A stretch of 64,000 nucleotides of DNA from Bacteroidota bacterium (lineage in GTDB: Bacteria > Bacteroidota > Bacteroidia > Bacteroidales > UBA7960). Positions within the stretch are counted from its first letter, which is position 1. The number at the start of each line of letters is the position of its first letter. The notes beneath the pieces were generated by a model. The model had not been told where the DNA came from and did not search any database. It saw only the letters and a list, made by a program, of their open reading frames with translations. Below are positions 36,201-55,199 of the stretch, one piece after another. Both the position numbers and the translations under genes were made by a program. The stretch is taken from assembly GCA_018335675.1 (NCBI GenBank), contig JAGXRQ010000017.1:8051-72050 (forward strand). Direction: 5' to 3'.

Positions 36201-36790
36201 ACAAGTTTTTTCAATTCTTCCTCGTTAGCAGCTTCAACTTTCTGAACTTCATGAGAAGTACGGAAGCCATCGAAGAAATGTAAGAATGGAACTCTTGTTT
36301 TTATAGCTGCAAGGTGAGCTATAGGAGCAATATCCATAATTTGCTGAACACTACCTGTAGCAAGCATTGCAAAACCGCTCTGACGAGTACTCATAACGTC
36401 TGAATGATCACCAAAAATTGAAAGTGCTTGTGCAGCTAAACTTCTTGCAGAAACATGAAAAACACCGGGAAGAAGTTCGCCCGAAATTTTATACATGTTA
36501 GGAATCATAAGCAATAAACCCTGAGAAGCAGTGTAAGTGCTTGTAAGTGCACCTGTCTGCAAAGATCCATGCACAGCACCTGCTGCACCGGCTTCTGATT
36601 GCATTTCAACAAGCTTAACTTCGTCTCCAAAAATATTCTTTCTACCGGCTGCCGACCAATTGTCAACATTCTCTGCCATGTCAGATGATGGTGTAATAGG
36701 ATATATAGCGGCTACTTCGCTAAACATATAAGCTACATTTGCTGCAGCATAGTTACCATCGCAGGTAACAAATTTTTTCTTGTTTGTCAT
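33257..36790 (-). CDS. nifJ: Pyruvate:ferredoxin (flavodoxin) oxidoreductase
   Basis: 1177-aa single-chain PFOR with two 4Fe-4S ferredoxin motifs (CIQCNQCAYVCPH, CTGCGNCVDVCP) and a TPP domain (GGDGWAYDIGFGGLDH). Confidence 0.96.
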   Translation of the reverse strand: MTNKKKFVTCDGNYAAANVAYMFSEVAAIYPITPSSDMAENVDNWSAAGRKNIFGDEVKLVEMQSEAGAAGAVHGSLQTGALTSTYTASQGLLLMIPNMYKISGELLPGVFHVSARSLAAQALSIFGDHSDVMSTRQSGFAMLATGSVQQIMDIAPIAHLAAIKTRVPFLHFFDGFRTSHEVQKVEAANEEELKKLVDYKALQEFRERALNPEHPVTRGTAQNPDIYFQSREAANSFYQVIPDVVEDYMKEISKICGREYHPFTYYGSPDAENILVAMGSITDTIKETIDYLKSKGEKVGLISVHLYRPFSSKYFFKVLPKTVKRIAVLDRTKEIGANGEPLYLDVREMFYGKENAPIIVGGRYGLSSKDTQPYHIISVFENLKLKEPKNNFTVAIVDDVTFTSLPMGEPIDVSIECAYAAKFYGIGSDGTVGANKNSIKIIGDTTDKYAQGYFSYDSKKSGGITVSHLRFGDCPIRSPYLINSADFVACHVPAYLEKYDMLKGLKKGGIFLLNSIWDVEETKKHIPGHMRKYMADNDIQLYIINATEIAEELGLGGRTNTIMQSVFFKLTNVIPYEKAVHEMKDAIMKSYGMKGEDIVKMNNAAIDAADKVVKVEIPADWKKADTTKAKSKKEVPAFIEDMVFTINSQKGDTLPVSAFKGREDGTFPQGTTAYEKRGIAVHVPEWVPSNCIQCNQCAYVCPHAVIRPFLLNDDEMKKKPADIQVVDANGKSLAGLKYKIQISPLDCTGCGNCVDVCPAPKKALEFKFLETQMHEDTNWDWFTKNVSYKETYLDKYQSVKNSQFAQPLFEFSGACAGCGETPYIKLITQLYGDRMMIANATGCSSIYGGSAPATPYAVNKDGHGPSWANSLFEDNAEYGFGMVTAATKLRNRIVRLMESSMDSKLSAETKAAFKEWLETRNDGAKSKEVSAKVVACLSKEKDPVAKEILDLKQYLVKKSVWVIGGDGWAYDIGFGGLDHVIASGDDINMLVLDTEVYSNTGGQASKSTPIGAIAKFAASGKRIRKKDLGLMAMTYGYVYVAQVAMGANQNQFVKAVREAEAYPGPSVIIAYSPCIAHGLKEGMGKTQQQTKDAVEAGYWHLFRYNPMLEAEGKNPFQLDSKEPDWSKFQDFINSEVRYNSLKKAFPKDADELLKATEENAKWRYNAYKRYADMQFGK

Positions 36791-36895: not shown

Positions 36896-38905
36896 TTAAT
36901 CAAAAAACAACCAAGAAATCCCGAACTTAAACATGCTTTCAGGGAAAGGATAAAAAGGAATCTGATAGTTTACAGGGGTGTCCATTATTAGTCCTAAAAT
37001 GTTTTGATATTTCAAAAACACTCTCACATCCGAAATTTTCACATTTAAAAAAACATCAAGTAAATACAAATCCGGCGACTTAAAATCTTGTTGTTTGTAA
37101 AACTGCATAACAACAGGCATAAATGCAGAAGGATGATATGAACTGTTATAATAGAAATCAAATCCTAATTGAAAATCCATAACTTTTTTAAACAACTTAT
37201 TCTCATAGTACAATGAGTTATAAGACATCAATTTGGGGTAATCAATAAATGACTCATTCGGCACATATTGATACACTATATAATTCTTCAACCCAATGCC
37301 ATAAAATTTATGATCCGTTTTAATACTAAGATTATATGTGTTTAAAGTTGATTGATTTTGGGTGGGCTCTAAGCTTTCATTCATAAAAACCATGTTGTTT
37401 ATAATGAAATAATCTCCGCCCAACTCAATGCCATTAAACAAATACCTCACTGATGCATTTGTCATTTTTATCTTGTCAAATTTAGTTCCCCAATTTTGGT
37501 AGTTGCCTATATAATAATGGTAGAAATATGGAGCTGCTTTTTCGGAATAAGATGCGTTAATCAAAACCTTATGCTTGTCAACATCTCGCCCAACTCCCAA
37601 TCCGGCGGTAATTAACATATCACTATCATTATAACCCAGCATTGTGTATTCAGCTTTACCTTTAAGAGATATGTATTTTGTATTGTCGGATTGAACCTCT
37701 ATGCCAGGAATATATTGATTGAAATGCCATTTATTAAAAAAATATATTGCTTTACCATCTTCAACTCTGGGAGCTGATAGATTAGGAAACTTAAGTTCTA
37801 TATACTGATGCTTAAGGTATAACTTAAAGTTAACAGGCAGGTATAATAAATCTCCCTGTTGAGGATAATTTGACCACGACAATTCATTTTGCGCAAACAT
37901 TACAACAGTAGAATCATAAGTTTGATTAACATTAAATGGCTCTTTATCAAAGAAAGAAGATACAGCAGATTTATCTTCAAAAACAAAAGATTTTCTTTTC
38001 AAGACAGCCTCATGACCAATTCGACCAAGATTGAAATGCGCTTTTTTATCTTTGCCATAAACTGAATCAGTTTTTTCACTTGTTCCTCTGTCATTAATAT
38101 CAAAGCCCAATTTATAATAATGATTTAGAGTAATCTCAAAATCGTAGTGTTTGTACTGGGCCTGACTAAGAATTACGCTTTCCCTAACATCATCATCTTC
38201 AAATGCCAATCTATCCTCTAGTCCACCACTCTCATGATTCATAATTTTTCCGTATGTGGCAGTAGATATAAGTTGATATTTTTTATTTGTTGTAGTGTAG
38301 TCAACAAGACCGTACAAACTATTATTTCGGGCATTTAGCCGAGAATATCTTCCAGGCGAACTAATCACATTATATGCAAAGCCAAAATATAAATTATCAT
38401 TAGCTTTCTGAGCATGCTTGGCATAAAACAATTGCTCACGGCTACTTCCAAAAACATAATACAATTCTGAACTCACATGATTAGGCTTATAAAAGTTCAA
38501 ATCAGAAATTGAATTAATGTAGCCGTAATGATGATTTTCAAAAAACAAAGGGAATAAATCATCCGATATCGGGTTAAATACAAGATTCATTGTTGAATGA
38601 CCAATATTGCCCTTACTTGCAAAAAATAATCTGTCATTTTTGTTTGCAAAGTCATAAATTTGAAAACCGGTAAGAGTTGTATCTATATATGATGGATATT
38701 GATAAAACGGGCTAACAATTTGGCGAAATTTGAAGTAAGCAACTTTGGAAGAAACTACAGAGTCAGATTCACAGATTTGATTATTTTTTTGTTCAACGAA
38801 TAAAGAATCAGACTTTGTTTCTATCAATAAGCTATCAGCTTGAGAAAAACCATACATTAAATAAATGCTTAACAGAAGAGTTATTGCGATGCGTGGGATA
38901 TTCAT
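36896..38905 (-). CDS. Large outer-membrane beta-barrel protein (Bacteroidota 'putative porin' type)
   Basis: Signal peptide, 669 aa, aromatic-rich alternating beta-strand pattern and a terminal ...FGISWLFFD typical of OM barrels. Family assignment is by resemblance only. Confidence 0.5.
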   Translation of the reverse strand: MNIPRIAITLLLSIYLMYGFSQADSLLIETKSDSLFVEQKNNQICESDSVVSSKVAYFKFRQIVSPFYQYPSYIDTTLTGFQIYDFANKNDRLFFASKGNIGHSTMNLVFNPISDDLFPLFFENHHYGYINSISDLNFYKPNHVSSELYYVFGSSREQLFYAKHAQKANDNLYFGFAYNVISSPGRYSRLNARNNSLYGLVDYTTTNKKYQLISTATYGKIMNHESGGLEDRLAFEDDDVRESVILSQAQYKHYDFEITLNHYYKLGFDINDRGTSEKTDSVYGKDKKAHFNLGRIGHEAVLKRKSFVFEDKSAVSSFFDKEPFNVNQTYDSTVVMFAQNELSWSNYPQQGDLLYLPVNFKLYLKHQYIELKFPNLSAPRVEDGKAIYFFNKWHFNQYIPGIEVQSDNTKYISLKGKAEYTMLGYNDSDMLITAGLGVGRDVDKHKVLINASYSEKAAPYFYHYYIGNYQNWGTKFDKIKMTNASVRYLFNGIELGGDYFIINNMVFMNESLEPTQNQSTLNTYNLSIKTDHKFYGIGLKNYIVYQYVPNESFIDYPKLMSYNSLYYENKLFKKVMDFQLGFDFYYNSSYHPSAFMPVVMQFYKQQDFKSPDLYLLDVFLNVKISDVRVFLKYQNILGLIMDTPVNYQIPFYPFPESMFKFGISWLFFD

Positions 38906-39031: not shown

Positions 39032-39622
39032 CTATTTTAGAAATTTTTTCATAGCAGCGCCAAATTTTTTCCCAGCAAGAGCATAACTTTCCTGCACTCT
39101 ATGACCAAGGTCAAAAGCAGTTGAGCCTCTTGCCTGAATAATATCGAATACAGCCACAGGACGATCGGGGTTGCTTCTTTCAACAAACGAAATTTTCATA
39201 TTTACAAATGCCGGTTTACTGGAAATACCAACGTTAAATCCGGGTTCAATGAAATAAGTGTTTACTACCATTATATATTTAGTATCTTCTCTGTATTGAT
39301 CAACAATAATATCTGCCTTAGCAGCATATTTGTTGAATAATTCAATAAACTTAGGTTCAAATCTGTTGTCTCTGTCAGCCAACCACGCATTATGCCATCT
39401 GTCGCCGCCGTCGCCATCTTTTTTATCTGCTTCAGCTCTTTTATCCCTAACATAATCTTCTTCTGTCATCTTGCCAACTCTCATATTGTCGTAAGTAAAC
39501 TGAATCTCAAGAACATCTTCCCCTTTAACAGACGATAGGCTTCCGGAAATTAATTTAATTTTTTGAGAAAAACCTGTTGAAGCTATCAACAAGGCAATGC
39601 TTAACATTAATAGTTTTTTCAT
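39032..39622 (-). CDS. Secreted hypothetical protein
   Basis: Signal peptide MKKLLMLSIALLIASTGFSQ. 196 aa with no motif I recognise. Confidence 0.6.
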   Translation of the reverse strand: MKKLLMLSIALLIASTGFSQKIKLISGSLSSVKGEDVLEIQFTYDNMRVGKMTEEDYVRDKRAEADKKDGDGGDRWHNAWLADRDNRFEPKFIELFNKYAAKADIIVDQYREDTKYIMVVNTYFIEPGFNVGISSKPAFVNMKISFVERSNPDRPVAVFDIIQARGSTAFDLGHRVQESYALAGKKFGAAMKKFLK

Positions 39623-39901: not shown

Positions 39902-40264
39902 CTAATTTACAACTATTTTTTTCTTAACAGATCCGGTGCTTCCATGCAGATTGCAATTCCCTTTAATTTCAATTTCAACAGTAGATTCAGCCTCAAATTC
40001 GTAAACTAATTGAAACTCTTGATCATCCGGTAGATTACTTCTTGTAAACTCCCATCTTTTTACTTCTTCGCCATTAATTTTAATAAAAACCCAATCTGTA
40101 AAATGTCTGGATGAGTTTCCCTTATGTTTTACATCAATTGTGATTTTGATAGTTTCTCCAATAGCAGCACTATCTGGAGCAACTATTTTTACAGAGGTTT
40201 TATTAGCTAAAAGACTTAAAGGCATTATGATAATAACTGCCAATAAAAGAAATAATTTCTTCAT
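39902..40264 (-). CDS. Secreted desulfoferrodoxin/superoxide-reductase-like Fe-binding domain protein
   Basis: Signal peptide MKKLFLLLAVIIIMPLSLLA. The HKGNSSRHFTDW and GNCNLHG motifs resemble SOR centre-II ligands (H...H.I.W, CN.HG). The ORF-track start at 40285 is a TTG, so I prefer the ATG at 40264. Confidence 0.4.
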   Translation of the reverse strand: MKKLFLLLAVIIIMPLSLLANKTSVKIVAPDSAAIGETIKITIDVKHKGNSSRHFTDWVFIKINGEEVKRWEFTRSNLPDDQEFQLVYEFEAESTVEIEIKGNCNLHGSTGSVKKKIVVN

Positions 40265-40343
40265 AATACAAAGTTTTAAATTCAACGTTAAAGGTATTAA
40301 TTATATGCGACATAAATGAATTTGAAGATATTTTTTTTAATGG

Positions 40344-40605: not shown

Positions 40606-42984
40606 TCAAAAACTAACCTTAATAGTAGCCATTGGATAAAACCCCATTTTATAGGTTTGGATAATTTCTCCTGTTATAAGATCTAGCCTATCGATATACA
40701 CATTTGTATAATTTGTTCTGTATTGCAAGTCGAATGCAGTTTCGATGCTGTATTTTTTTTCATTGCGCCTCATACCTATTCTAAGACTAATTCTTTTATA
40801 ATCCTCTCTTTTCACAGTATAAGCATTTGCCCAATCGTAAATTACTTTTCTATTTTCAACTGAAGCTTCAATATCATATGGCACATAAGGCATTCCACCT
40901 GCATATGTCATATTAATGCCAATATTAGCTGAACGGTTTCTTTTTGGGGCTATAAATTCGTATCCTACTAAAAGGTTAAAAGCATAATTTCCATTAAAAG
41001 CAGTGTTTCTTTTTATACCATCTGCACCGGTATATTTTGATTCAAATAATGAACCCGAAAGTAAAGCAAAGTAGTTTTTACTCCAGAATTTCTCAAAAGT
41101 TAACTCTACCCCATAATTCTCACCTGTTCCAATATTTTGCAGGTTATCTTTTCTTTCGATGTAGTATTCTGCGCCGTAATTGATAATTGAATAAACTGAG
41201 TCTGTAACAGAAACGGGCACATTAAACAGATACTGATAATAAGCTTCAAGTTTAACTCTAAGGTCTGAAGTTATGATATAATCATAGCCAAAAACATTAT
41301 GCCAGCTGCGTGTAAACTTCAAGTCTTTGTTTGTATAAAGACTGCCATTATTATCGCTTAAAACATAATAAGCCATTAATTGCTGCATTTGGCTGTATAA
41401 CCCTGACCCAATGCTAAATGTATGTCGTGGTAAAACATTATAGCTTACATTAATCCTGGGCTCTGCAACAACCTCACCAGTATGCTCAAGCATTTGAGCG
41501 TTTAACCCAACATAGGTCGTTATTTTAGGAGTAATTCTATGTAATAAATCGCTATAGACCCTGTACAACCTCAATGTTTCATTTTTGGCCATTACATTAT
41601 GAACATATCTATTATAAACAAATTGGCTATCAACAAAATTGAGAAAATAATTATCGGCATACAACCCAACAGAGAAATCTGTTTTGGAGGAAAACTTATG
41701 CTTAAACTGAGTTCTCAAAGAATACTTCATTTGGTCTGACATTTCTCTGGCATAAGGGAAGGGATCAACATAAGTAATATTAAATGTATCAACAGCATTA
41801 TAAAGCTGGCTTCCTGATATATAAAACGTAGTTGTGAACAGACTTTTTGCGCCATGGGAGATGTTATGATTTACTCCTATAACCCCCATTCTATATACAT
41901 TTACAATATCTTCACTATAAGATGAAAAAATCCAATTTTCATGTTTTTTTCTAGAGTCAATCAATTCAATTTTACTGTCGCCTCTAAGCCCAACCAGAGA
42001 AAAAGTTCCTGCAGATTTTGTTGGAAAGTTTAGTTTAAAAGAAAAATCGTGATAAAATGCAGCTTCAGGAATTCTAATATTAAACCTTGTTAGAAGATCA
42101 ACCACAGAATATCTGTAACTCATAATGTATGATGCATTATTTAGATGAGGCAGTGGCCCCTCAGTTCCAAATTCAAGACCATTCCATCCGAGTTGAGCCC
42201 AATGCTCATAAGAATAAGCATTCCCATTTCGCAGTTTAAGATCAAACACTCCGGCAATAGAATTGCTGAATTCAGCAGGATAGTTACTTGTAAGAAAGTC
42301 TGAGTTGCCAAGCAAATTAGTGTTCACAATCGTAATAGGGCCTCCGGTAGAACCTGTTGCTCCAAAATGGTTTGGGTTAGGAATTTCCATTCCATCAACT
42401 TTCCAGATTAATCCGCTGGGCGAATTACCTCTAATAATAATATCGTTGCGATTGTCGCGGACAGGCATTACACCGGCATAATTTGCAGCCATACGCGCAG
42501 GGTCGCCGTAGCTTCCGGCATATTTTGTTGTTTCTTCAAGCGAAAATGAGCGGGAAGAAACAATGGCCCTCATATTAATTGGCTTATCTTTTTGAGCAAA
42601 TGACTGAATTGTTACTTCTTCGAGGTTATATACCGCTTCTTTAAGGTTCTGATTTATAACAAGTTCTTTCCCGCTTATAAGATGCATCCTTTCCAAAGTG
42701 AATACTTCATAACCCACCATAGAAAACCTGATATTATAATAACCTACAAGCATATTTGCAAAAACAAAGTAGCCGTTATCATCGGTAATTCTATACTCAA
42801 TTTTATCATTTGAAGAAAGCTGAACTGTAACTCCCGGCAAAGGGAATCCTGCAGAATGGTCAACAACACGCCCCCTGATATTCTGATAAAGCTTACCCTT
42901 TGGGATAGTATCATTTTCCTGAGCAAAAGAATTCAGGCTTACTGACAAAAGAGCAAATAAAAGGATATGATAAGCCTTTTTCAT
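40606..42984 (-). CDS. TonB-dependent-receptor-type outer-membrane protein with an N-terminal carboxypeptidase-regulatory-like domain
   Basis: Signal peptide, CarboxypepD_reg-like GRVVDHSAGFPLPGVTVQL, a plug-like region (GDPARMAANYAGV, RNDIIIRGNSPSGLIWKVDGMEIPNPNHFG) and a terminal aromatic residue (TIKVSF). Confidence 0.8.
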   Translation of the reverse strand: MKKAYHILLFALLSVSLNSFAQENDTIPKGKLYQNIRGRVVDHSAGFPLPGVTVQLSSNDKIEYRITDDNGYFVFANMLVGYYNIRFSMVGYEVFTLERMHLISGKELVINQNLKEAVYNLEEVTIQSFAQKDKPINMRAIVSSRSFSLEETTKYAGSYGDPARMAANYAGVMPVRDNRNDIIIRGNSPSGLIWKVDGMEIPNPNHFGATGSTGGPITIVNTNLLGNSDFLTSNYPAEFSNSIAGVFDLKLRNGNAYSYEHWAQLGWNGLEFGTEGPLPHLNNASYIMSYRYSVVDLLTRFNIRIPEAAFYHDFSFKLNFPTKSAGTFSLVGLRGDSKIELIDSRKKHENWIFSSYSEDIVNVYRMGVIGVNHNISHGAKSLFTTTFYISGSQLYNAVDTFNITYVDPFPYAREMSDQMKYSLRTQFKHKFSSKTDFSVGLYADNYFLNFVDSQFVYNRYVHNVMAKNETLRLYRVYSDLLHRITPKITTYVGLNAQMLEHTGEVVAEPRINVSYNVLPRHTFSIGSGLYSQMQQLMAYYVLSDNNGSLYTNKDLKFTRSWHNVFGYDYIITSDLRVKLEAYYQYLFNVPVSVTDSVYSIINYGAEYYIERKDNLQNIGTGENYGVELTFEKFWSKNYFALLSGSLFESKYTGADGIKRNTAFNGNYAFNLLVGYEFIAPKRNRSANIGINMTYAGGMPYVPYDIEASVENRKVIYDWANAYTVKREDYKRISLRIGMRRNEKKYSIETAFDLQYRTNYTNVYIDRLDLITGEIIQTYKMGFYPMATIKVSF

Positions 42985-43005
42985 CTTGCGGGGTTGTTTA
43001 TAAAA

Positions 43006-43395
43006 TTAATCGGAAATCATTTCAACCACCTTCTCTCGGGCAATTCTTTCCCAGCGTGGTTCAGAAAATAGACCATTGTCTATTTTAAAATGCACAATAT
43101 CGAAAGTTTCATGCAAAAATTCATACTTCGACCCAACATCAGGTGTATGCAGTATAAAAAATAATTCCTCAGGTTTAATTTTTTTATCCTGTGTAATAAT
43201 CTCAGCAAGTTTGGGGCAATATTCTGTTACTGAAGTTCCGGGGTTATCTTCATAAAGCTCTGTAATAATTGCTATTGTCTGATTATTCTTGATTACAATT
43301 TTTAATCCGCATTTAGAAGGCAGCCCCCATAATCCGGCATAATCATAAACTTCATCAACAAAATTCTTTTCCTTATCTCTGATAATTTGTCCCAT
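43006..43395 (-). CDS. Hypothetical 129-aa cytoplasmic protein, translationally coupled to the radical SAM gene
   Basis: Its ATG lies 1 nt from the radical SAM stop. No signal peptide and no recognisable motif. Confidence 0.6.
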   Translation of the reverse strand: MGQIIRDKEKNFVDEVYDYAGLWGLPSKCGLKIVIKNNQTIAIITELYEDNPGTSVTEYCPKLAEIITQDKKIKPEELFFILHTPDVGSKYEFLHETFDIVHFKIDNGLFSEPRWERIAREKVVEMISD

Positions 43396-43396
43396 A

Positions 43397-44662
43397 CTAA
43401 CGATCTATATTTTTTCCAAAACTTTTCTGTACAAGGTCGTCTCTTCTTGATCGATAAGTTCCGTCGCGCATTTCCTTATCAATCACTTTCATCATCATTT
43501 TGAACATTTTCTGTTCCTGAGTTTCTTTAGCATAAAAGGTATCCCACGCATAATAATACAATTCCTGTAGTCTTTCCGGCGACATATGTTTAGGCTTGAA
43601 AACAACTTTTCCGGCATTGTAATTATTCCAATCTTTATCAATAATTCTACCTTCTTTCAAAAAATCATCATAAGCTTTTGTGTGTCTGAATGGAGTAAGA
43701 ACTGTAAATTCAGCAAGGTCAACATTAATCTCTAAAAGAAAATCTATTAGCCTTAGAATATCATCTTCAGTTTGATTGTCCATTCCAAGGAGGATTGTAC
43801 CTTCTACAAGTATTCCATAATCGTGATATCTTTTAACTCTTTCCTTAATATAGTCAGAAGTGTCAAAAACTGCCTGATACACATACCACGCGCCAGCTTG
43901 AGCTGCAAGGTCGAGCACTTCGGGTTTATCTTCGATAGTGTGGCTGCACCATTTCTTTTTTAAAGGTATCATAGCCTTAAAAAGATCTTTTTCCCACTGT
44001 GTATCCTGAGCTAAAGAGTTATCAACGATAAACAACCTGTTATTATAAATCTGTGCAAGCTCTTCAACAACTTTATCGATTGGTCGGGGTCTAAACTGTC
44101 TTCCACCAAGGAATGTTACACAACAAGGATAACATGCATACTTACAACCTCTTGATGCATGAAATAAGTCGACCATTTGCACTCCTTTATGATAGTACAG
44201 CTCTCTTTTCAGGATATCTCTGCGCGCAGGACCAATTAGCTCAATATTGGGGTGCTGATACATATAATTGTATAATGGCTTAAGTTGATTCTTTTTAAAA
44301 TCATCAAAAACTTCATGAAGCCTTCCCTCAACTTCACCCATAAAAATACTATCGGCATGTTGCATAGTTTCTTCGGCATGAAGCATGGTAGAGATACCTC
44401 CGAAAATAACTTTTTTACCAAGCTTTCTATATTCATCCGCTATCTCCCACCCTCTTTTCACCTGTGATGTAAGCATAACAGAGATTCCGACAAAATCAGC
44501 ATCATCTTTAATAACAAGAGGCTCAACGTTTTCGTCAATAAAATCAACTTCAACGTAATCAGGCAATGCAGCCGCCATTACAACAGGACCGTGAGGAGGC
44601 AAGTTAAAATGAGTTTGTCTCTCAAGCTTTGTCCATTTTGGATATATTAATTTAAACTTCAT
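43397..44662 (-). CDS. B12-binding-domain radical SAM enzyme (class B type)
   Basis: N-terminal Rossmann-like B12-type domain (DFVGISVMLTSQ...KVIFGG) and a CxxxCxxC cluster motif in SRGCKYACYPCCV. 421 aa. Confidence 0.8.
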   Translation of the reverse strand: MKFKLIYPKWTKLERQTHFNLPPHGPVVMAAALPDYVEVDFIDENVEPLVIKDDADFVGISVMLTSQVKRGWEIADEYRKLGKKVIFGGISTMLHAEETMQHADSIFMGEVEGRLHEVFDDFKKNQLKPLYNYMYQHPNIELIGPARRDILKRELYYHKGVQMVDLFHASRGCKYACYPCCVTFLGGRQFRPRPIDKVVEELAQIYNNRLFIVDNSLAQDTQWEKDLFKAMIPLKKKWCSHTIEDKPEVLDLAAQAGAWYVYQAVFDTSDYIKERVKRYHDYGILVEGTILLGMDNQTEDDILRLIDFLLEINVDLAEFTVLTPFRHTKAYDDFLKEGRIIDKDWNNYNAGKVVFKPKHMSPERLQELYYYAWDTFYAKETQEQKMFKMMMKVIDKEMRDGTYRSRRDDLVQKSFGKNIDR

Positions 44663-45734
44663 AATTATAGCTATTCATAAATTTATTACATCCTTCCCTA
44701 ATCAAATCAACCTTATCTTGTTCAAGAACGTATTTGTTCTTTTCATATGTTTTTACGCTTAATAAAAATTCTCTGACATTTTTTTCAAATTCATCAGAAA
44801 AACTCAAATTAAGATTTGAGTATAATTTCTTCAAAACCCCGACTGTATCAGCTTCGAGCTCATCAAACCTAACTTTGCAGTAACTTTCACTATCTAAATC
44901 TTTGGTTTGTAGTTTTATGCTTCCCCATAATGAATTAAACATATCAATAGCACTCTGATATGAAATATCAGTCCATTTCCCTGCAAGCAAATTTTGAGAT
45001 CCAACAATATTCCACATTCTAATTGTGCTGGGAATTACTTCCAATGGATTTCTATGAATATGAATAAATTTTGCATTTGGAAACAACGCTTTCAAATGCC
45101 TAACTCTGTATGAGTGAAAAGGATTTTTAAAAAGAGCTATCCCATTATTTTTATAAACAAGCTTTGATACAAAATGAGAAAAAGACTTCTCCCAATTTTC
45201 CGATAACCTTTCATTTTCCATAGAAACTTTAAGATCGGCGAGAAAGTCATTGTTATTTCTTCTGAAAAAAATCTTCTCTAGTGCAGTCCCCTTAACAAGC
45301 TTCACAATAGCGTATTCATCTTCCTGTGGTTCATCAGGACCAAGCTTTACATTATCCATTGGTCTTTTCTCCCCAATAACTTTCGACATAATTTTTCTGA
45401 AATAATTCTCAGACACCAAAAAGCTATCCGGCACAGAAACCTGAACCACAGATGGAGTAACAAACTGAGGGTCAAGCGACATCAATTGATGGAGGAAGGT
45501 ACTTCCTGTTCGCCAATGCCCAATAATAAAAACAGGGCCACAATCATAGTGTTTAGGAAATTTCTTTCTGTTGAATTTTAAAAGTTCAACTCTTTTAAAA
45601 ATAGATGCCCAAATACTTCCTTGCAATAAGAAAAGAAATCTCCCAAAAAAAGCGGGAGATACTCCTTTATTCCTAACGACCATGCTGAATAGCTTGCCGA
45701 AAGTTATTACACTAAGCAAGTATGAGTGCTTCAT
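44652..45734 (-). CDS. Sulfotransferase family protein
   Basis: PAPS 5'-phosphosulfate-binding loop IIGHWRTGSTFLHQL plus downstream RNP/HR elements. It overlaps the radical SAM start by 11 nt. Confidence 0.75.
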   Translation of the reverse strand: MKHSYLLSVITFGKLFSMVVRNKGVSPAFFGRFLFLLQGSIWASIFKRVELLKFNRKKFPKHYDCGPVFIIGHWRTGSTFLHQLMSLDPQFVTPSVVQVSVPDSFLVSENYFRKIMSKVIGEKRPMDNVKLGPDEPQEDEYAIVKLVKGTALEKIFFRRNNNDFLADLKVSMENERLSENWEKSFSHFVSKLVYKNNGIALFKNPFHSYRVRHLKALFPNAKFIHIHRNPLEVIPSTIRMWNIVGSQNLLAGKWTDISYQSAIDMFNSLWGSIKLQTKDLDSESYCKVRFDELEADTVGVLKKLYSNLNLSFSDEFEKNVREFLLSVKTYEKNKYVLEQDKVDLIREGCNKFMNSYNYEV

Positions 45735-45742
45735 TTCTGATG

Positions 45743-46030
45743 TTATTTTTCTACATTATCCAATTCCTTCTCAAGAAAATCAGCAATTGTATCAATAGAT
45801 TCCAAAATAACTCTTGCAAGGTTTTGGTCTGCTATTCTAACATTATATTTTTGCTGAACTGCAAGAATTATCTCAATTGCATCAATAGAGTCGAGTCCAA
45901 GTGGATTGTCTTGACCAAAAAGAGGTGCATTGCTGGGAACTTCAGCAGCTGTTACATGAGTAATTTTTAAGACTTCAATAATCAGTTCGGTTATTTCCTT
46001 TTTTAAATTATTTTTTTCTTCGGCATTCAT
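45743..46030 (-). CDS. Acyl carrier protein
   Basis: 95 aa with the phosphopantetheine attachment motif LGLDSIDAIEI. Confidence 0.85.
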   Translation of the reverse strand: MNAEEKNNLKKEITELIIEVLKITHVTAAEVPSNAPLFGQDNPLGLDSIDAIEIILAVQQKYNVRIADQNLARVILESIDTIADFLEKELDNVEK

Positions 46031-46048
46031 AATAAACTAATTTTTACA

Positions 46049-47053
46049 TTAAACCATTTTTTTAAGATCTGTGAAGAATGATTTTTCTTCATCTCCCCTT
46101 TTTCTAATTAACTCACTCAGTTCTGCCAGCTTGTCGGGGCCAAGATCTCTATTTTTCCCAATTTTTGCGGCGAAGTAAGAAATTTTTCTCCATTCATCGC
46201 CGTTAAGCATCATTCTTTTCGACATATCTGCCAGATTATTATTGCCTAAGATTTCAGATGCTTGTTGCAGAAAAGAAGCGTACATAAATCTAAAACCTGC
46301 ACCACCGGTGCCCTGATCTTCGAGAAGAATATTAATTTTCATTATTTCGTGTGAAAGATGTTCGGTATCTCTTGCGAGCAGAGGCCATTCCTTAACTTTA
46401 TTGGCAAATTTATAAATTCCTTTAACTCCAATAAAAGGCACAGGCAATCCTATCATATTTCTACAAGCATTCTTAATCCCTTTGATAATAGGCTTTCTGA
46501 AATCAATCTCAGTAGGCACTTTTTCAGGGTAGAACAAAAACCCTTTAGGAGGCATGTGTCCGCCAGCCCAACGTGCTTTTCGCATTGACTCTTTTTTAAG
46601 CTCGCTAATTTTAGGATAATAACTATCACTTACAACATAGTAATCGTCCTTTATACCGGTAACAAGAATAAAGTGAACATTGATATGAACTCTTTGCCAA
46701 TCAGGCATATAGTCCATGTAAAAGAAATCCACTTGAGCCGCAGTAGGAATATTATTAAGAATCAACTTATCAAGAGCAGCTTCACCTTTTGCAACATCTT
46801 TATAAGTGTTTTCTTTAAGTTTAATTCCCAATCTGGAAGTAATGTTTTTTCTAATCTGCCCGGGTCTGCTTCTAACAATAAATGTTGGAAAAGGGAAGTT
46901 ATCAGTTTCCAGATAACCGAAAAAGATACCGTTTGCAATTCCAAAAACCAGAGGTTCGGTAATTTTCAAACCGGAATAATTAAATAAGGCTGTCAGAGTG
47001 CCTGTTTCGCAGTGGGCAGCCATTCTATGTTGAAAATCAATAATATTATTCAT
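46049..47053 (-). CDS. BtrH-like protein (BtrH N-terminal papain-like domain + DUF4872-like C-terminus); putative ACP-dependent acyl/amide transferase
   Basis: N-terminal MAAHCETGTLTALFNYSGLKITEPLVFGIANGIFFGY matches the HCE(S/T)G catalytic-Cys motif of BtrH_N as I recall it. An ACP gene lies adjacent. Confidence 0.6.
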   Translation of the reverse strand: MNNIIDFQHRMAAHCETGTLTALFNYSGLKITEPLVFGIANGIFFGYLETDNFPFPTFIVRSRPGQIRKNITSRLGIKLKENTYKDVAKGEAALDKLILNNIPTAAQVDFFYMDYMPDWQRVHINVHFILVTGIKDDYYVVSDSYYPKISELKKESMRKARWAGGHMPPKGFLFYPEKVPTEIDFRKPIIKGIKNACRNMIGLPVPFIGVKGIYKFANKVKEWPLLARDTEHLSHEIMKINILLEDQGTGGAGFRFMYASFLQQASEILGNNNLADMSKRMMLNGDEWRKISYFAAKIGKNRDLGPDKLAELSELIRKRGDEEKSFFTDLKKMV

Positions 47054-47080
47054 CAGAAGTAACGATATTATATAAAAAAC

Positions 47081-47554
47081 TTATTTCTTAACTCCAATTT
47101 TAAATAACTCAAAGCAATCGTTTTTAGTTTTCATCTTTTCGATTTCCAGATTGCTTTTATCATCTTCTTTAACGATTATAACCTGAAGCATAGAAGACAA
47201 AGGCACATCAAACACGTCTGCATATTTTTTTAGCATAGCAAGCGAAAGTTTTTTAAATCCTTGAGGTTTAAAATGTTTTTTTAATGTGAATTTAAAAACG
47301 CCAACCCTAGATGCAAGATCACCTATTCCCATCTCTTGTAACAGCATATAATAATAAACAGGACTAATTTCATTATTAGCAATTTGGTCTCTTAAGCTCT
47401 TTTCAAGATTTTTCCTCTTAGCATAAAAATCGTCAAGATAATCATGTGAAAGCTGTGAACCACTAACCACAGGGCCATAAGAACTGTCGTCCTTTTCCAC
47501 ATAATAGACTGCTTGTTGAGGCTTAAAATCAACATAAAGTTCTTTTTCTTTCAT
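47081..47554 (-). CDS. Small protein with a predicted XRE-like helix-turn-helix region; first gene of the accessory operon
   Basis: 157 aa. The central segment MGIGDLASRVGVFKFTLKKHFKPQGFKKLSLAMLKKYADVFDVPLSSML looks like an HTH_3-type fold. This is pattern recognition only. Confidence 0.4.
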   Translation of the reverse strand: MKEKELYVDFKPQQAVYYVEKDDSSYGPVVSGSQLSHDYLDDFYAKRKNLEKSLRDQIANNEISPVYYYMLLQEMGIGDLASRVGVFKFTLKKHFKPQGFKKLSLAMLKKYADVFDVPLSSMLQVIIVKEDDKSNLEIEKMKTKNDCFELFKIGVKK

Positions 47555-47595
47555 AGGGAAATACTCTTAGGGTTGTTTAAATTTAAAAAGTATGG

Positions 47596-47603
47596 CAAAA
47601 ATA
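47596..47603 (-). promoter_or_regulatory. Candidate -7 promoter box (TATTTTTG) for the accessory operon
   Basis: The minus strand reads TATTTTTGCCATAC, about 42 nt upstream of the ATG at 47554. Confidence 0.45.
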
Positions 47604-47619
47604 GTTATAAAAAAAGGTT

Positions 47620-47726
47620 CCACGCAAATTACGCAAAATTTAAAAGCGCAAAAGTGCGCAAAGTTTACAGATTATTAACTACTCTATGAATATCATTTTC
47701 TGTCATTGCCTTTGCGGCTTTTGCGA
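47620..47726. promoter_or_regulatory. Operator-like array: four direct CGCAAA(A) copies plus an inverted pair
   Basis: CACGCAAATTACGCAAAATT...AGCGCAAAAGTGCGCAAAG carries copies spaced about 10 bp apart. CTTTGCGGCTTTTGCG, about 45 nt further on, is the near-perfect reverse complement of CGCAAAAG-N-CGCAAAG. Confidence 0.5.
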
Positions 47727-47747
47727 GGTAAAAAAAATTTTATGATA

Positions 47748-48215
47748 CTAATTACCCATTATTTTTTTTGCAAATGCAACAACTTGTTCATTTCTTATGT
47801 TCGATGTTTTAGTTGATACGCCGGTAAGCTCTAAAATTACTTTCCTTTCAAATTCCATTAGTAGTTCAGGGTCAATCTCACCTCCGAAACATTCTAAAAT
47901 AACTTTATCATCAGGCTTTTCCGGCAAAATTTTATTAATAAATTCAATATAATTTTTCTCATCCCAGCATAATACAAACACACCAAATAACCTAGGTTTT
48001 ATTGCATCCCAGTTCTTTTTTAGAAAGTTCCTCATATCTCTGGTGGTAGAACCGGCATATATGGGAATTCCTATAATAATTTTGTCGAAAGATTCAATAT
48101 TTTGAATATCCGACAAGGTTGAAAACGCAAATGCATTATCGCAGTTATCAGCAATTTTTTCAGCAACCCTTTTTGTGCTGCCATATTTTGAAGTATATAT
48201 AACAGCTATTTTCAT
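47748..48215 (-). CDS. Flavodoxin-fold protein (flavodoxin_5 / HemG-like)
   Basis: MKIAVIYTSKYGSTKRVAEKIA is an FMN phosphate-loop-like start. 155 aa. ATGA overlap with the upstream dehydratase gene. Confidence 0.7.
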   Translation of the reverse strand: MKIAVIYTSKYGSTKRVAEKIADNCDNAFAFSTLSDIQNIESFDKIIIGIPIYAGSTTRDMRNFLKKNWDAIKPRLFGVFVLCWDEKNYIEFINKILPEKPDDKVILECFGGEIDPELLMEFERKVILELTGVSTKTSNIRNEQVVAFAKKIMGN

Positions 48216-48634
48216 TGCTGCTGCAAAAATATATTCATATCACATTCAGCTATAACTTTACCATTATACAACACAGAACCATGTATAATTGTTGCATTCA
48301 TAACTTCGCTGACAATATCAACTGTAGTAATAATTTCACCATTTACAGCAGGCCTTTCAACAACAGTAAGTTTTTTAACAGCGCCAATAAATCCCGGTAT
48401 TACTGGTTTATTATTACTAATACAATTATACCCAACACCGGCTGCAGCAGTTTGAGCTATATTTTCAATAAGTCCGCTTTCCGAGAGCATATTCTCTTCA
48501 ACAAGAGGATTATCTGAAATGATTTTATAACCAGAAACAATCTTAGTTCCATTGGCTTCTATAAGCCTATCGATAAAGACAAAAGGAGGTCTTTGGGGAA
48601 TATATTTTAATATTTCCTCACCTTGAGCAAGCAT
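48212..48634 (-). CDS. Hotdog-fold 3-hydroxyacyl-ACP dehydratase (aryl-polyene ApeI-like)
   Basis: The IPQRPPFVFIDRL motif is typical of the FabZ/FabA-like dehydratases of APE clusters. The ORF-track start at 48655 is a TTG overlapping the methyltransferase. The ATG at 48634 lies 2 nt after that gene's stop. Confidence 0.75.
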   Translation of the reverse strand: MLAQGEEILKYIPQRPPFVFIDRLIEANGTKIVSGYKIISDNPLVEENMLSESGLIENIAQTAAAGVGYNCISNNKPVIPGFIGAVKKLTVVERPAVNGEIITTVDIVSEVMNATIIHGSVLYNGKVIAECDMNIFLQQQ

Positions 48635-48636
48635 AA

Positions 48637-49707
48637 TTATTTTTTTGGTTTGCAAATAAACATTGTATGGCTAACACCAATGTTGTCCACAGCTTTCTCA
48701 ACATACATTCCTGCTTTATCAACAAGTTTATACATATCGTCGGAATGATACATCTGGCTACATCCATTTGCAATGCAGGTAAAATATAAGGAAGTGGCGT
48801 GCAGACTGTACATTGCCGCATCATATTTCTGTTTGTCCCAATAAGTTTCGAGAATATATAACGCGCCATCAGGACTAAGAGCATTTTTGCCTCTAGTGAT
48901 TAGATGTAAAATATCTTCTTGAGAAAAGCAATCTAAGAACTGGCTCATCCAAACCGCATCATAACCTGTAGGGAAAGGTTTTGAAGAGTCGAGTAAATTC
49001 ATTGCATGTCCGTTAATCCTATCGGAGAAGCCATGATTTTCGATGTTTTTATATGCGTCATTAAGCTGTCCGGGAAGGTCTAGAATTGTCACATTTACAT
49101 CAGCGTCAAACTCACAACACTTAATTGAAAACTTACCTGTATTGCCACCAACATCTAGAATCTTCTTTGGTTTTCTCTCAAAAATAATTGGCAAAGCTTC
49201 AGGGAAAGCATTATCAGAATAATAATGATCAAAAGCGAACCAGCTTTTTCTAACCTGTGCTGGCAGATGCGCAAGAGCTTCATAAACAGTATCCCATTTA
49301 CCAAAGACCTTCAAACCTTCAGGCTTTCCATTTTTTATTGATTCTTCCAGCTCGTAAAAACCAAGATAATTTACGTCATGCGTAAAATCCAAGTTTACTG
49401 TTGTTAGAGAGTCATTTTGAACAAACCAACCGGTTTTAGTTAAGAAGAACTTATCGTCTTTAACATAGACTATTTCCAGACTAATACCTGCTTCAAGCAA
49501 AACTTTTGCTCCATAAACAGAAATTTTGCAATTTTGGGCAACTTCTTCAATAGTTAATCCTATTTTTCTGTTTTTATCCAGAGTATCTAGTATGCCTAAA
49601 TTTCTCATTGATTTTGCAGCCTGAAACATAATGGGAGCAAAGGCTATTTTCTGAGCGTCAAATTTGGCTTGTACTGCCGACTTTTCGTCTGATCCGTAGT
49701 TCTTCAT
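48637..49707 (-). CDS. SAM-dependent O-methyltransferase (Methyltransf_2-like with N-terminal dimerisation domain)
   Basis: SAM motif ILDVGGNTGKF. Start placed at the internal ATG (MKNYGSDEKS), 28 nt after the upstream gene's stop. The longer ORF-track N-terminus overlaps that gene. Confidence 0.8.
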   Translation of the reverse strand: MKNYGSDEKSAVQAKFDAQKIAFAPIMFQAAKSMRNLGILDTLDKNRKIGLTIEEVAQNCKISVYGAKVLLEAGISLEIVYVKDDKFFLTKTGWFVQNDSLTTVNLDFTHDVNYLGFYELEESIKNGKPEGLKVFGKWDTVYEALAHLPAQVRKSWFAFDHYYSDNAFPEALPIIFERKPKKILDVGGNTGKFSIKCCEFDADVNVTILDLPGQLNDAYKNIENHGFSDRINGHAMNLLDSSKPFPTGYDAVWMSQFLDCFSQEDILHLITRGKNALSPDGALYILETYWDKQKYDAAMYSLHATSLYFTCIANGCSQMYHSDDMYKLVDKAGMYVEKAVDNIGVSHTMFICKPKK

Positions 49708-49735
49708 TCTAATAGTATTAAATATTAACAAACAA

Positions 49736-50632
49736 TTAATTAGATATTTTCCAAAACTGATGATAATTAAACCATTGCAGAGGATATTGCTTAACAACTC
49801 TTTCCATTTCAGCGATATAATCATCCATCATTGCCGAAAGTTCTTGCTTTCTGGTTTTGAGATTTGCCGGATATTTATATAACTTCGGCGGTGTTGCAAA
49901 AAAATGATAATGAGTAGTTTTTTCTTTCATAGCAGAAACATAAACAACCGGAACATTATACTTGCTTGCAAGATATACTGAACCGGTAGGAAATTCGGCT
50001 TCAAAACCCATAAAGTTTTTAACAGCATTATTTGTACCCGGCAAAAACCTATCTCCATGCATAGCTATAATTTCTTTATTTTTAAGAGCTTCTGCAATTT
50101 TAAACAGGTAATCGTTGCTATTTTCTTTGATGTATATAATTTCGATATTGTACTTCCTCATAACAGAGCCAACAAGATCCCGAATATAATGCTGCTCACC
50201 GTCGTACATCAAAATGTTGATTTTAGCATTAATTCTTTCCAGCAATTTACCAGCAATTTCCCAATTTCCAACATGTGCACCAACTAGAATGCCTCCGGTA
50301 TTCTCCTCAGCCATTTTATGCAAAAAATGTTCACCTTCGAAATTAAAAGAAAACTTAGTTGAAAAACCTGCTGCAATCGCAATTCTATCAAGCAGAACTT
50401 GTCCAAAAATATAATAATTGCGATAAATACTTTTTTGAGTTTTAAAATAAGAATACTTTAGAACATGCCTGAAATAAAATCGTATTCCCTGTTTATTTGA
50501 AAAGAGGAAAAACCAAAAAGCGACGAAAATAAGCACAAAATAAGCAATTCTGATATTAAAATGCTTTAACAGAAATATAAAGATCCTATATCCTAAGGGT
50601 CCGCCTTTAGTTTTTCCGCTCCATGAAGCCAT
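49736..50632 (-). CDS. LpxL/HtrB-type lysophospholipid acyltransferase (aryl-polyene ApeD-like)
   Basis: N-terminal membrane anchor, VGAHVGNWE (the HX4D-type region reads HVGNWE) and about 300 aa, as in lipid A biosynthesis acyltransferase family members of APE clusters. Confidence 0.7.
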   Translation of the reverse strand: MASWSGKTKGGPLGYRIFIFLLKHFNIRIAYFVLIFVAFWFFLFSNKQGIRFYFRHVLKYSYFKTQKSIYRNYYIFGQVLLDRIAIAAGFSTKFSFNFEGEHFLHKMAEENTGGILVGAHVGNWEIAGKLLERINAKINILMYDGEQHYIRDLVGSVMRKYNIEIIYIKENSNDYLFKIAEALKNKEIIAMHGDRFLPGTNNAVKNFMGFEAEFPTGSVYLASKYNVPVVYVSAMKEKTTHYHFFATPPKLYKYPANLKTRKQELSAMMDDYIAEMERVVKQYPLQWFNYHQFWKISN

Positions 50633-50880
50633 TAATTCTTGTTAAGTTTGTTATAAATGTAATCATAAAGGTCATCAACAGTTCTAACACCTGCAACTTC
50701 CTCTCCAACAACCTTTACTCCAAACTCTTTTTCAACAATAACAGCAATATCAACAAAGTCAAGGCTTTCAATACCTAAATCATCTTTCAACAAAGCATCA
50801 GGAGAGAGTTGAGAGCTCTCAATTTCAAACTCATCGATAAGAAATTCGTTTACCTTGCTAACAATTACTTCTTTTTGCAT
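50632..50880 (-). CDS. Acyl carrier protein
   Basis: LGIESLDFVDIAV carries the attachment Ser motif. Start placed at the ATG (MQKEVIVSKV). The ORF-track start at 50985 is a TTG inside the promoter region. Confidence 0.85.
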   Translation of the reverse strand: MQKEVIVSKVNEFLIDEFEIESSQLSPDALLKDDLGIESLDFVDIAVIVEKEFGVKVVGEEVAGVRTVDDLYDYIYNKLNKN

Positions 50881-50915
50881 AATTACACGAAAATATTTAA
50901 TACTCGATTGACTTA

Positions 50916-50923
50916 CAAAGCTA
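50916..50923 (-). promoter_or_regulatory. Candidate -7 promoter box (TAGCTTTG) for the left arm (ACP to flavodoxin-fold gene)
   Basis: The minus strand reads TAGCTTTGTAAGTC, about 36 nt upstream of the ACP ATG. Confidence 0.45.
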
Positions 50924-51116
50924 AGGTTTTTCACAAATAATCTTAAAAACCTTACGTTAAAAAACCTTATAAAAATGAACAGCAAAAGTATAAAAAAGTT
51001 GCAAACGAATACATAAAAATTATATACTTATTATATATGTTGTTAAAAAACATTGAAAAGGGGGTGGGGTGTTTTCTCTGCGAGCCTTGTGTCTTATAAT
51101 AGGATACGTACTAGCG

Positions 51117-51158
51117 AATCCGTTAAAATCAGTCTAATCTGTGTCATCCGTGTTCCGT
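51117..51158. repeat. Degenerate phased repeat of five copies of AATCNGT-like words at 8-10-bp spacing
   Basis: AATCCGT, AATCAGT, AATCTGT, CATCCGT and TTCCGT, read directly, followed by a T-run. Confidence 0.8.
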
Positions 51159-51200
51159 TTTTTAAATTTGCTTCGGATTTAAGATTTTTTTTAAAAATAG

Positions 51201-51342
51201 CTACACAGTGTTTCACAGTGTTTTCACAGAGTTTCACAGTGTGGTTTGTGCAAACCAAATCGTAAATCGTAAATCGTAAATATTACATTGCCGCTGCCAA
51301 CTGTTGACTATTGACTGTTGACTGTTGTTGCTTACTGCTGAC
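51201..51342. repeat. Mosaic of three short tandem arrays in the divergent promoter region
   Basis: Four TTTCACAGTG-type units at 10-11-bp phasing (51204-51241). A GGTTTG-TG-CAAACC inverted repeat (51243-51256). 3.5 copies of AAATCGT (51257-51281). About seven 7-bp CTGTTGA/CTATTGA-type units (51294-51342). Confidence 0.9.
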
Positions 51343-51388
51343 TTTTTCCCACCAAAACATCCCCTTCCATTTCAAAACAAAAAAATAT

Positions 51389-51396
51389 TATATTTG
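51389..51396 (+). promoter_or_regulatory. Candidate -7 promoter box (TATATTTG) for the right arm
   Basis: TATATTTGCACTGC is an exact TAnnTTTG match, about 120 nt upstream of the GTG start at 51517. Confidence 0.45.
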
Positions 51397-51516
51397 CACT
51401 GCAATTTTAGTCATAAAAAAGCCTTGTCAAAACGGGATAATATTCAGACCAATGCATTCTTGTCTTTTGTTTATAAGGCATTTCAACATTACAAACAACA
51501 CAAATATAACTTTTAA

Positions 51517-53082: not shown

Positions 53083-53084
53083 TT

Positions 53085-53813: not shown

Positions 53814-53832
53814 TTTTAACAAAAAATTGATT

Positions 53833-55056: not shown

Positions 55057-55057
55057 G

Positions 55058-55157: not shown

Positions 55158-55199
55158 ATTTTCAATCGTAACTTTTTGTTGGTGAATTATATATTTATT

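Follow-up and report, generated by a model that had tools for sequence, protein, structure and literature searches.

A string of seven genes on the minus strand of contig JAGXRQ010000017.1, lying within the 64,000-nucleotide (nt) stretch of Bacteroidota DNA that was analyzed as a whole and is referred to here as the window, combines relatives of the dar genes of flexirubin clusters with a sulfotransferase, a B12-binding radical S-adenosylmethionine (SAM) enzyme, and a 129-amino-acid (129-aa) protein. With moderate confidence, and going by comparisons of sequence, we favor the view that this module is a lineage-specific version of the dar sub-cluster that makes a sulfated, flexirubin-like aryl-polyene (APE) lipid of the outer membrane; the single chemical steps are much less sure. 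Judged by their sequences, genes 1 to 3 are not new and represent divergent paralogues of the published darG, darH (BtrH-like), and darC (acyl carrier protein [ACP]) genes. What is new is found in genes 4 to 6 (sulfotransferase, B12 radical SAM enzyme, and 129-aa protein).

An open reading frame (ORF) scan of the window found seven minus-strand ORFs, all in the same direction, between positions 47554 and 40606. In the order of their reading, and with an asterisk marking the module copies of a gene product in the window and in related loci, they are the following:

47554-47081, minus strand: DarG*, 157 aa, DarG-family protein with a central XRE-type helix-turn-helix (HTH) fold in its structural model.
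47053-46049, minus strand: DarH*, 334 aa, BtrH_N plus DUF4872, a member of the papain-fold thiotemplated transacylase family and a paralogue of DarH.
46030-45743, minus strand: dedicated, DarC-like ACP, 95 aa, PP-binding.
45734-44652, minus strand: sulfotransferase, 360 aa, Sulfotransfer_3, mycobacterial Stf1-type, with a conserved N-terminal extension.
44662-43397, minus strand: rSAM*, 421 aa, B12-binding (class B) radical SAM protein.
43395-43006, minus strand: u129, 129 aa, no family match, directly 3' of rSAM*.
42984-40606, minus strand: outer-membrane beta-barrel protein (OMP), 792 aa, N-terminal CarboxypepD_reg and a weak plug signal.

The gaps between the seven genes are, in order, 27, 18, 8, -11, 1, and 21 nt, an exact match to the co-directional string and the spacings given in a preliminary description of the window. 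All genes from 50985 to 40606 run in the same direction, and the sole sizeable gap among them is one of 193 nt located 5' of DarG*. The BtrH, ACP, sulfotransferase, and B12-radical SAM assignments of that description held in searches with Pfam and other hidden Markov models (HMMs), and the motifs that it had read by eye (the HC of BtrH-like proteins, the DS of the ACP, the PAPS [3'-phosphoadenosine 5'-phosphosulfate] loop, and CxxxCxxC) are conserved in orthologues.

Homologues of the sulfotransferase fall into 2454 clusters, and a profile search found relatives in at least 579 GTDB species-representative genomes. Our locus comparison used the 80 best loci from this homologue search; presence counts refer to the 51 loci with enough flanking sequence, and marker counts refer to the 39 loci with 10 kb on each side. 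The order DarG*-DarH*-ACP-sulfotransferase is constant in the 80 best loci, while the rSAM*-u129-OMP trio lies either directly 3', as in the window, or a few genes upstream, and is linked to the other genes in approximately 43 of 51 loci. Individual genes were present as follows: DarG* and DarH* in 50 each of the 51 loci, the ACP in 47, rSAM* and the OMP in 43 each, and u129 in 40. Median intergenic gaps in the related loci range from -1 to 24 nt. At least 50 species-level genomes, nearly all of them metagenome-assembled genomes (MAGs), have the module with its genes in nearly constant order, and the seven-gene arrangement is far beyond chance.

Almost all genomes carrying the sulfotransferase are labeled Bacteroidales, with the rest labeled Marinilabiliales, Prolixibacteraceae, Draconibacterium, Lentimicrobiaceae, and Rikenellaceae; we take these Bacteroidia lineages to be anaerobic (sediment, digester, or gut related). 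For some loci, the species named is the cultured Draconibacterium orientale, the records themselves being MAGs. Two bins carry labels from further afield, Alphaproteobacteria for L076 (SACF01000019.1) and Chlorobiota for L012 (JAADID010000077.1), and have gene orders and identities like those of Prolixibacteraceae or Lentimicrobiaceae; these labels probably reflect mis-binning rather than transfer.

We compared genes 1 to 3 with the published dar families. DarG* scores 75 bits against the NCBIfam subfamily model DarG_fam (NF053536), above its cut-off of 70, and 78 bits against the flexirubin_DarG equivalog (NF053545), below its cut-off of 170, and is thus a member of the family and not the flexirubin orthologue. 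The 157-aa protein has no Pfam match, so that the HTH claimed in the preliminary description is borne out at the level of structure only: the AlphaFold model (predicted local distance difference test [pLDDT] score of 79) contains a central five-helix HTH of the XRE type with beta hairpins on both flanks. In Foldseek, this model matched the HTH domains of SinR, HipB, and C.BclI with a probability of 1.0 and TMt values of 0.57 to 0.75, at a root mean square deviation of ~2 Å across ~60 residues; the same list includes HppE and HEPD, in which this fold is a domain that does not bind DNA. The DarG* and DarH* genes overlap or abut in most genomes (median gap in 68 loci, -1 nt). From its model, DarG* could be a putative regulator or a partner of DarH*, both of which are possible.

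DarH* matches BtrH_N (PF14399; 1e-34) and DUF4872 (PF16169; 3e-43) in Pfam and narrowly passes the NCBIfam model DarH_acyl (NF053550), with 302.4 bits over residues 6-331 and a cut-off of 300. By the same model, a canonical DarH in locus L029 reaches 450.5 bits and the module copy in L046 reaches 315.7 bits. Among 70 DarH* sequences, H14-C15 is kept in 69, and C15, H123, and H127 are invariant. A sequence search of the PDB with DarH* returned no relatives. The ACP gene, which starts 18 nt 3' of DarH*, encodes a PP-binding domain (PF00550; 2.6e-7) in which D47-S48 is present in 28 of 28 sequences. The DarG*/DarH* pair of the window is ~35% identical to the canonical DarG/DarH pair. Twelve loci contain both a canonical pair (DarH, 450 bits; DarG, 170 bits) and a module pair (302-316 and 78 bits), which indicates that the two are distinct paralogues. 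Within the stretches examined, the window and its four closest relatives have the module pair only, and in loci of the window type the module is placed exactly where the other type has the canonical pair, 3' of the ApeP-like dehydratase.

Few bacterial gene cluster families are as widespread as the aryl polyenes, and flexirubins have long served as a chemotaxonomic marker of aerobic Bacteroidota. The preliminary description had attached the seven genes to APE machinery and proposed a neighborhood check. In that check the seven genes were found to co-occur, and the module sits inside a flexirubin-type cluster both in the window and in 33 of the 39 related loci with 10-kb flanks. The cluster in the window occupies the following region:

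48212-63984, mixed strands: flexirubin-type aryl-polyene core and export genes, identified with NCBIfam and Pfam.

Its genes include an ApeP-like dehydratase, an FlxJ-like methyltransferase, a lipid A-type acyltransferase, an ACP, FlxA, FlxB, a ketosynthase (KS), and a deacetylase; those on the export side are LolA2, LolB2, a glycosyltransferase, and a fusion of an MMPL protein with an acyltransferase. The cluster has an ApeI-like gene as well. The tyrosine ammonia-lyase FlxA (822 bits; cut-off, 700), FlxB (388 bits), LolA2 (195 bits), and LolB2 (100 bits) are all above their NCBIfam cut-offs; at 526 bits, the FlxJ-like methyltransferase falls short of its cut-off of 560. On the 123-kb source contig, the window end is followed by two CrtI-like oxidoreductases, a C45 acyltransferase, and the 4-coumarate ligase FlxY (679 bits; cut-off, 520), which lies ~10 kb past that end, and then by unrelated regulators. 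FlxA and FlxY start the polyene. From these matches, the neighboring aryl-polyene cluster is, as far as sequence can tell, specifically of the flexirubin type and complete. The absence of a KS, adenylation, or loading enzyme that had been noted for the module is true inside the seven genes and does not extend to the cluster, which has FlxY as a loader; in other genomes, the FlxY gene comes immediately 3' of the sulfotransferase gene.

Related loci show the same association in other arrangements. In L024 and L026, the order is C45 acyltransferase, methyltransferase, DarG*, DarH*, ACP, sulfotransferase, rSAM*, u129, and FlxY. In the Prolixibacteraceae type (L046), it is C45 acyltransferase, rSAM*, u129, OMP, methyltransferase, ABC permease, DarG*, DarH*, ACP, sulfotransferase, f22, and FlxY (716 bits), and in the L034 type the module is divergent from FlxA. 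Two conserved genes of the Prolixibacteraceae-type loci are without a family match, namely, f22 (L046 11179-11952; 257 aa), 3' of the sulfotransferase, and f27 (L052 4046-5854; 602 aa), 3' of the OMP.

In aerobes, the aromatase DarA and the ketosynthase III (KSIII) cyclase DarB make the dialkylresorcinol. We found no DarA or DarB in the window cluster or its contig extension, and no KSIII-like ORF in the window or that extension (L082) by phmmer with an approximate Escherichia coli FabH sequence as the query. Nor was a KSIII of DarB grade among the recurrent neighbors of the module. Four related loci do have a KSIII-like ORF, and the two that were scanned (L035 and L024) best match the StlD/DarB family, though far under the cut-offs, at 110-127 bits versus a cut-off of 450 for StlD/DarB and 85-90 bits versus one of 550 for DarB (NF053539). 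In both, the KSIII has two crotonases and a thioesterase as neighbors, to which L035 and L020 add a 3-hydroxyacyl-coenzyme A (3-hydroxyacyl-CoA) dehydrogenase; no unknown gene of DarA size adjoins the KSIII in L035 or L024. The KSIII-side genes would supply the beta-keto and 2-enoyl thioesters used by DarB-type cyclases. These KSIII regions span L035 2372-7850, L024 14286-17640, and L020 1-3264, with a phosphopantetheinyl transferase (PPTase)-like gene among the neighbors.

Some of these loci would fit a separate pathway whose product is a sulfated lipid or signal of the outer membrane, with the module merely encoded close to flexirubin genes and the aryl polyene not its substrate: 6 of the 39 fully flanked loci are without a flexirubin or APE marker within 10 kb; in ~17 loci the module comes with a second ACP, a PPTase, and a FabD-like acyltransferase of its own; and in L035, L024/L026, and L020 it lies beside the StlD/DarB-like KSIII, crotonases, and 3-hydroxyacyl-CoA dehydrogenase. 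We consider this explanation unlikely, given that, in many genomes, the genes for the flexirubin-specific ligase FlxY and the C45 acyltransferase lie beside or within the module and that DarG and DarH are otherwise known only from dar/flexirubin clusters (PMC3992019). In Chitinophaga pinensis, too, the dar and flx clusters are physically apart and yet contribute to one molecule.

The sulfotransferase, the first of the new parts, matches Sulfotransfer_3 (PF13469) in Pfam at 3e-31 and 109.6 bits (cut-off, 27). Its PAPS loop, GHWRTGST, is kept, with G72, W74, R75, G77, and T79 invariant, and identity across loci is 37-65%. NCBIfam has no model for the sulfotransferase, rSAM*, or u129. When the PDB was searched with a profile of the sulfotransferase family, the best matches were 2z6v/2zq5 (1e-14), which are of the mycobacterial Stf1 type, and the match included the N-terminal extension; the next were the sulfotransferase (ST) domains of CurM (4gbm; 9e-9) and OLS (4gox; 4e-8).

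The latter two matches raise the alternative of activating sulfation, in which a beta-hydroxyacyl group would be sulfated on the ACP and off-loaded by DarH* acting as a hydrolase, with loss of CO2 and sulfate giving a terminal alkene, and with neither sulfate nor carboxyl in the product. The ACP and sulfotransferase genes adjoin each other in 73 of the 80 loci, in keeping with the ACP-ST-release logic of CurM, and a pathway of this kind would need no resorcinol partner in a cluster that has no DarA/DarB. Its weak points are that the closest solved relatives are lipid sulfotransferases of the Stf1 type, which share the N-terminal extension, and that release in CurM and OLS is the work of an alpha/beta-hydrolase thioesterase and not of a BtrH-like transacylase; known members of the BtrH family transfer and do not hydrolyze (PMC7183216). 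We therefore regard activating sulfation as quite improbable and return to the sulfated, flexirubin-like lipid as the preferred product.

The most conserved part of the module is rSAM*, which is 71-88% identical across loci. It is above the Pfam cut-off for B12-binding (PF02310; 35 bits versus 32.1) and slightly under that for Radical_SAM (PF04055; 26.5 bits versus 29.5), and its C173xxxC177xxC180 motif is invariant in 51 orthologues. Only two full-length representatives of 50% clusters are more than 50% identical to it; they are followed, at 38% or less, by hundreds of unnamed B12 radical SAM proteins. By these comparisons, rSAM* appears as a tight and narrow orthologous group without a characterized relative. 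We rejected a named family for rSAM*, given that all NCBIfam matches are far under their cut-offs (57 bits or less) and that the nearest paralogues are unnamed too. The nearest solved structure is AprD4 (E = 6e-4). With no close characterized relative, methyltransferase is only the commonest activity of the class to which rSAM* belongs.

Further B12 radical SAM genes, up to two extra per cluster, are found in related clusters. Those in L034 (1712-3070 and 16196-17536, both minus strand) and L009 (6751-8232, minus strand) encode proteins 21-30% identical to rSAM*. One extra gene lies between the lipid A-type acyltransferase and ApeP, the slot occupied in the window by the FlxJ methyltransferase, which suggests replacement of a conventional methyltransferase by a radical SAM enzyme in related clusters. 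In P0322, a 1210-aa protein, an MMPL/HAE3 transporter is joined with a B12 radical SAM domain (35% identity to rSAM*), a hint that membrane lipids destined for export are the substrates of the wider radical SAM family.

The gene for u129 is always directly 3' of that for rSAM*, with a median gap of 14 nt. Nothing significant was found for u129 in Pfam, NCBIfam, a PDB sequence search, or Foldseek. Modeling of this protein, as the preliminary description had proposed, used 16 database sequences and gave a confident fold without a known structural match: the AlphaFold2 model has a pLDDT of 85, and its best fold match in the PDB has an E value of 0.012 and a TM score of 0.28. In 43 sequences, C29-G30 and N51-P52-G53 are invariant. 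That rSAM* and u129 form a protein- or peptide-modification pair, with u129 (through Cys29) as the substrate or carrier and no lipid chemistry, would agree with their constant adjacency, the invariant Cys-Gly and NPG motifs, and the lack of a known fold, but is highly improbable given that u129 is well folded and conserved over its full length, with no variable core or leader-like part, and that the rSAM*-u129 pair was never seen away from the DarH*, ACP, and sulfotransferase genes. The folded state of u129 and the lack of a leader-like part also led us to rate a reading of the pair as a ribosomally synthesized and post-translationally modified peptide (RiPP) system as unlikely.

The last gene encodes a protein with a signal peptide and a C-terminal Phe, both typical of outer-membrane barrels, and with an N-terminal CarboxypepD_reg domain (PF13620; 7e-14). 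Its earlier designation as TonB-type is weakly supported: the Plug domain gives E = 0.34 (11.9 bits; cut-off, 23.9), and the CarboxypepD_reg match is the only significant one. The protein had no match to a barrel HMM and none in a PDB sequence search.

Two features lie upstream of the module:

47555-47747, minus strand: upstream intergenic region of 193 nt, with a box, TTTGCG repeats, and a hairpin.
47748-48215, minus strand: flavodoxin (PF12724; 1e-21), upstream of DarG* in the window and in L002, L003, L006, and L007.

The flavodoxin is directly upstream only in relatives of the window type. Radical SAM enzymes usually receive their electrons from flavodoxin, and from its identity and position the one encoded here is the probable electron donor of rSAM*.

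The preliminary description had given the seven genes one shared TAnnTTTG box and one operator-like repeat array. There is one such box in the upstream gap, TATTTTTG at 47603-47596, 42-49 nt before the DarG* start codon, and two more matches lie inside coding sequence. The motif is not enriched in the window, with 87 matches found versus 95 expected, so that only its position carries weight: a box near -45 is common to the window and its four closest relatives (L002, L003, L006, and L007). The array is likewise real, consisting of four direct copies of TTTGCG (47662-47623) and two inverted ones (47711-47725), such that 6 of the 29 copies in the window fall within ~100 nt. It is lineage specific, being absent from all related loci, even those that are 74-83% identical at the protein level, and it is partly terminator-like, with the first two copies forming a GC-rich hairpin (47659-47646) that is followed by a T-run. 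This hairpin may terminate the transcript of the flavodoxin gene. On both grounds, we rejected a conserved TTTGCG operator.

Beyond the 3' end of the module lie two genes that recur beside it:

39902-40285 and 39032-39622, minus strand: h127 and h196, respectively, small secreted proteins.

A desulfoferrodoxin-like domain (PF01880; 28 bits) is present in h127, and h196 has no known domain; h196 occurs in 29 of the 51 loci and h127 in ~14. Also downstream of the module are a Porin_10 outer-membrane protein (36896-38905, minus strand) and a sigma-54-type response regulator (32023-33201, plus strand). A pyruvate:ferredoxin oxidoreductase (33257-36790, minus strand; 1945 bits) fits an anaerobic host. 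On the other side, within the flexirubin-type cluster, a C10 (streptopain-like) cysteine peptidase carrying an I69 inhibitor prodomain as well as a C-terminal sorting domain for type IX secretion (55242-56891, plus strand) stands like an insertion between the KS and the polysaccharide deacetylase, and the 1281-aa fusion on the export side (60139-63984, plus strand) combines an MMPL/HAE3 exporter with glycerolipid acyltransferase and methyltransferase domains.

In the pathway that we propose for a sulfated, flexirubin-like lipid, the ACP would carry an acyl chain as a thioester, the chain being either the 4-coumarate-primed Flx aryl polyene or its lipid partner. Cys15 of DarH* would take this chain and, in the manner of BtrH and CtaG, hand it on to an acceptor with a hydroxyl or amine group. 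Reduced by the flavodoxin, rSAM* would carry out an oxygen-independent C-H functionalization, for which C-methylation is the most likely outcome and oxidation in place of the missing aromatase DarA a less likely one. The sulfotransferase would add a sulfate ester to a free hydroxyl of the lipid, and the barrel, together with the LolA2, LolB2, and MMPL proteins, would place the product in the outer membrane. A bolder and more tentative version, which we would not ourselves bet on, is that the product belongs to a hitherto undescribed class of outer-membrane pigment lipids made by Bacteroidia living without oxygen, in which DarH* joins the aryl polyene to a partner built without oxygen, rSAM* and u129 replace DarA in acting on the product of a divergent StlD/DarB-like KS where one is present, and the hydroxyl is sulfated. 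If true, such products would be the first sulfated flexirubin-type compounds.

Several points weigh against the assignment of the module to a sulfated flexirubin-like lipid. The activities and the product of its parts are predictions from genes and models. The sulfotransferase is, by its profile, distantly related to the "activating" CurM and OLS enzymes too, and the characterized relatives of rSAM* appear to be no closer than ~20-38% identity. DarG* may simply be a repressor. The search for DarA and DarB covered the locus stretches compared here, so that a "replacement" of the resorcinol is a candidate reading. Finally, the six loci without a flexirubin or APE marker within 10 kb (L005, L011, L013, L015, L016, and L080) have the module in other surroundings.

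To our knowledge, no enzyme has ever been assigned to the coupling of the polyene with its lipid partner in flexirubin. The module provides a variant back end, present in hundreds of species from presumed-anaerobic Bacteroidia lineages, in which the DarG/DarH/ACP trio is retained while, in the cluster, DarA and DarB give way to a sulfotransferase, to a B12-type radical SAM enzyme, and to a protein of no known family, a natural experiment that points to DarH as the coupling enzyme. It brings the flexirubin coupling step within experimental reach, predicts a new sulfated outer-membrane lipid, and offers a very conserved, uncharacterized class B radical SAM enzyme in a defined genetic context. 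As some loci are attributed to the cultured D. orientale, the prediction is probably directly testable.

We compared the module with known systems. Our literature search returned no report that combines flexirubin with a sulfotransferase and none of this gene combination. In C. pinensis, the dar genes are ordered darA, darB, darG (hypothetical), darH (BtrH-like peptidase), darI/darJ (ABC transporter), darC (ACP), and darD/darE (ketosynthases), and in Flavobacterium johnsoniae the cluster (Fjoh_1075-1110) contains these parts together with two genes for outer-membrane barrels (PMC3992019). Neither of these clusters has a sulfotransferase or radical SAM gene (PMC3992019, Tables S4/S5). A BtrH-like gene is also listed in the dar cluster of Azoarcus (PMC3949708). 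The preliminary description had not recognized the combination in described flexirubin clusters; this is correct for genes 4 to 6, while genes 1 to 3 and the barrel genes are already there.

The module resembles the dar operons (Cpin_6843-6852 and Fjoh_1095-1103) in having a DarG-family protein, a BtrH-like DarH, and a dedicated ACP, in its tie to Flx aryl-polyene genes, an outer-membrane barrel, and Lol-like genes, and, in many loci related to the window, in the same ABC-2 permease and ATPase. In contrast to those operons, the module in the window is without DarA, DarB, and DarD/E and has genes 4 to 6 (sulfotransferase, rSAM*, and u129) instead; DarG* and DarH* form a separate branch that is barely at or under the NCBIfam cut-offs; and the carriers are presumed-anaerobic Bacteroidia rather than aerobic Flavobacteriia and Chitinophagia.

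The remaining likenesses concern single proteins. Enzymes of the BtrH family are thiotemplated transacylases that use a Cys-His-Asp triad and pass through an acyl-Cys intermediate (PMC7183216). Like BtrH and CtaG, of the butirosin and closthioamide pathways, DarH* has a BtrH_N domain, an N-terminal Cys after a His, conserved His residues, and an adjacent carrier protein; it differs in having an extra DUF4872 and neither an ATP-grasp loader nor an aminoglycoside or peptide context. With the mycobacterial Stf1/Stf3-type enzymes and the CurM and OLS domains, the sulfotransferase shares the Sulfotransfer_3 fold and the xRTGST PAPS loop, and with Stf1 the N-terminal extension. Several of its homologues are called "omega-hydroxy-beta-dihydromenaquinone-9 sulfotransferase" in automated JGI annotation. 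However, its similarity to Stf1, CurM, and OLS is remote (E values of 1e-14 for the first and on the order of 1e-8 for the other two, with a family profile), it stands alone rather than as a domain of a polyketide synthase (PKS), and its neighborhood is another one. Finally, rSAM* has the N-terminal B12-binding domain and the CxxxCxxC core of the class B radical SAM enzymes BchE, HpnJ, HpnR, and TIGR04013, from which it is set apart by scores far under the cut-off of every named family and by its membership in a narrow and unusually conserved group.

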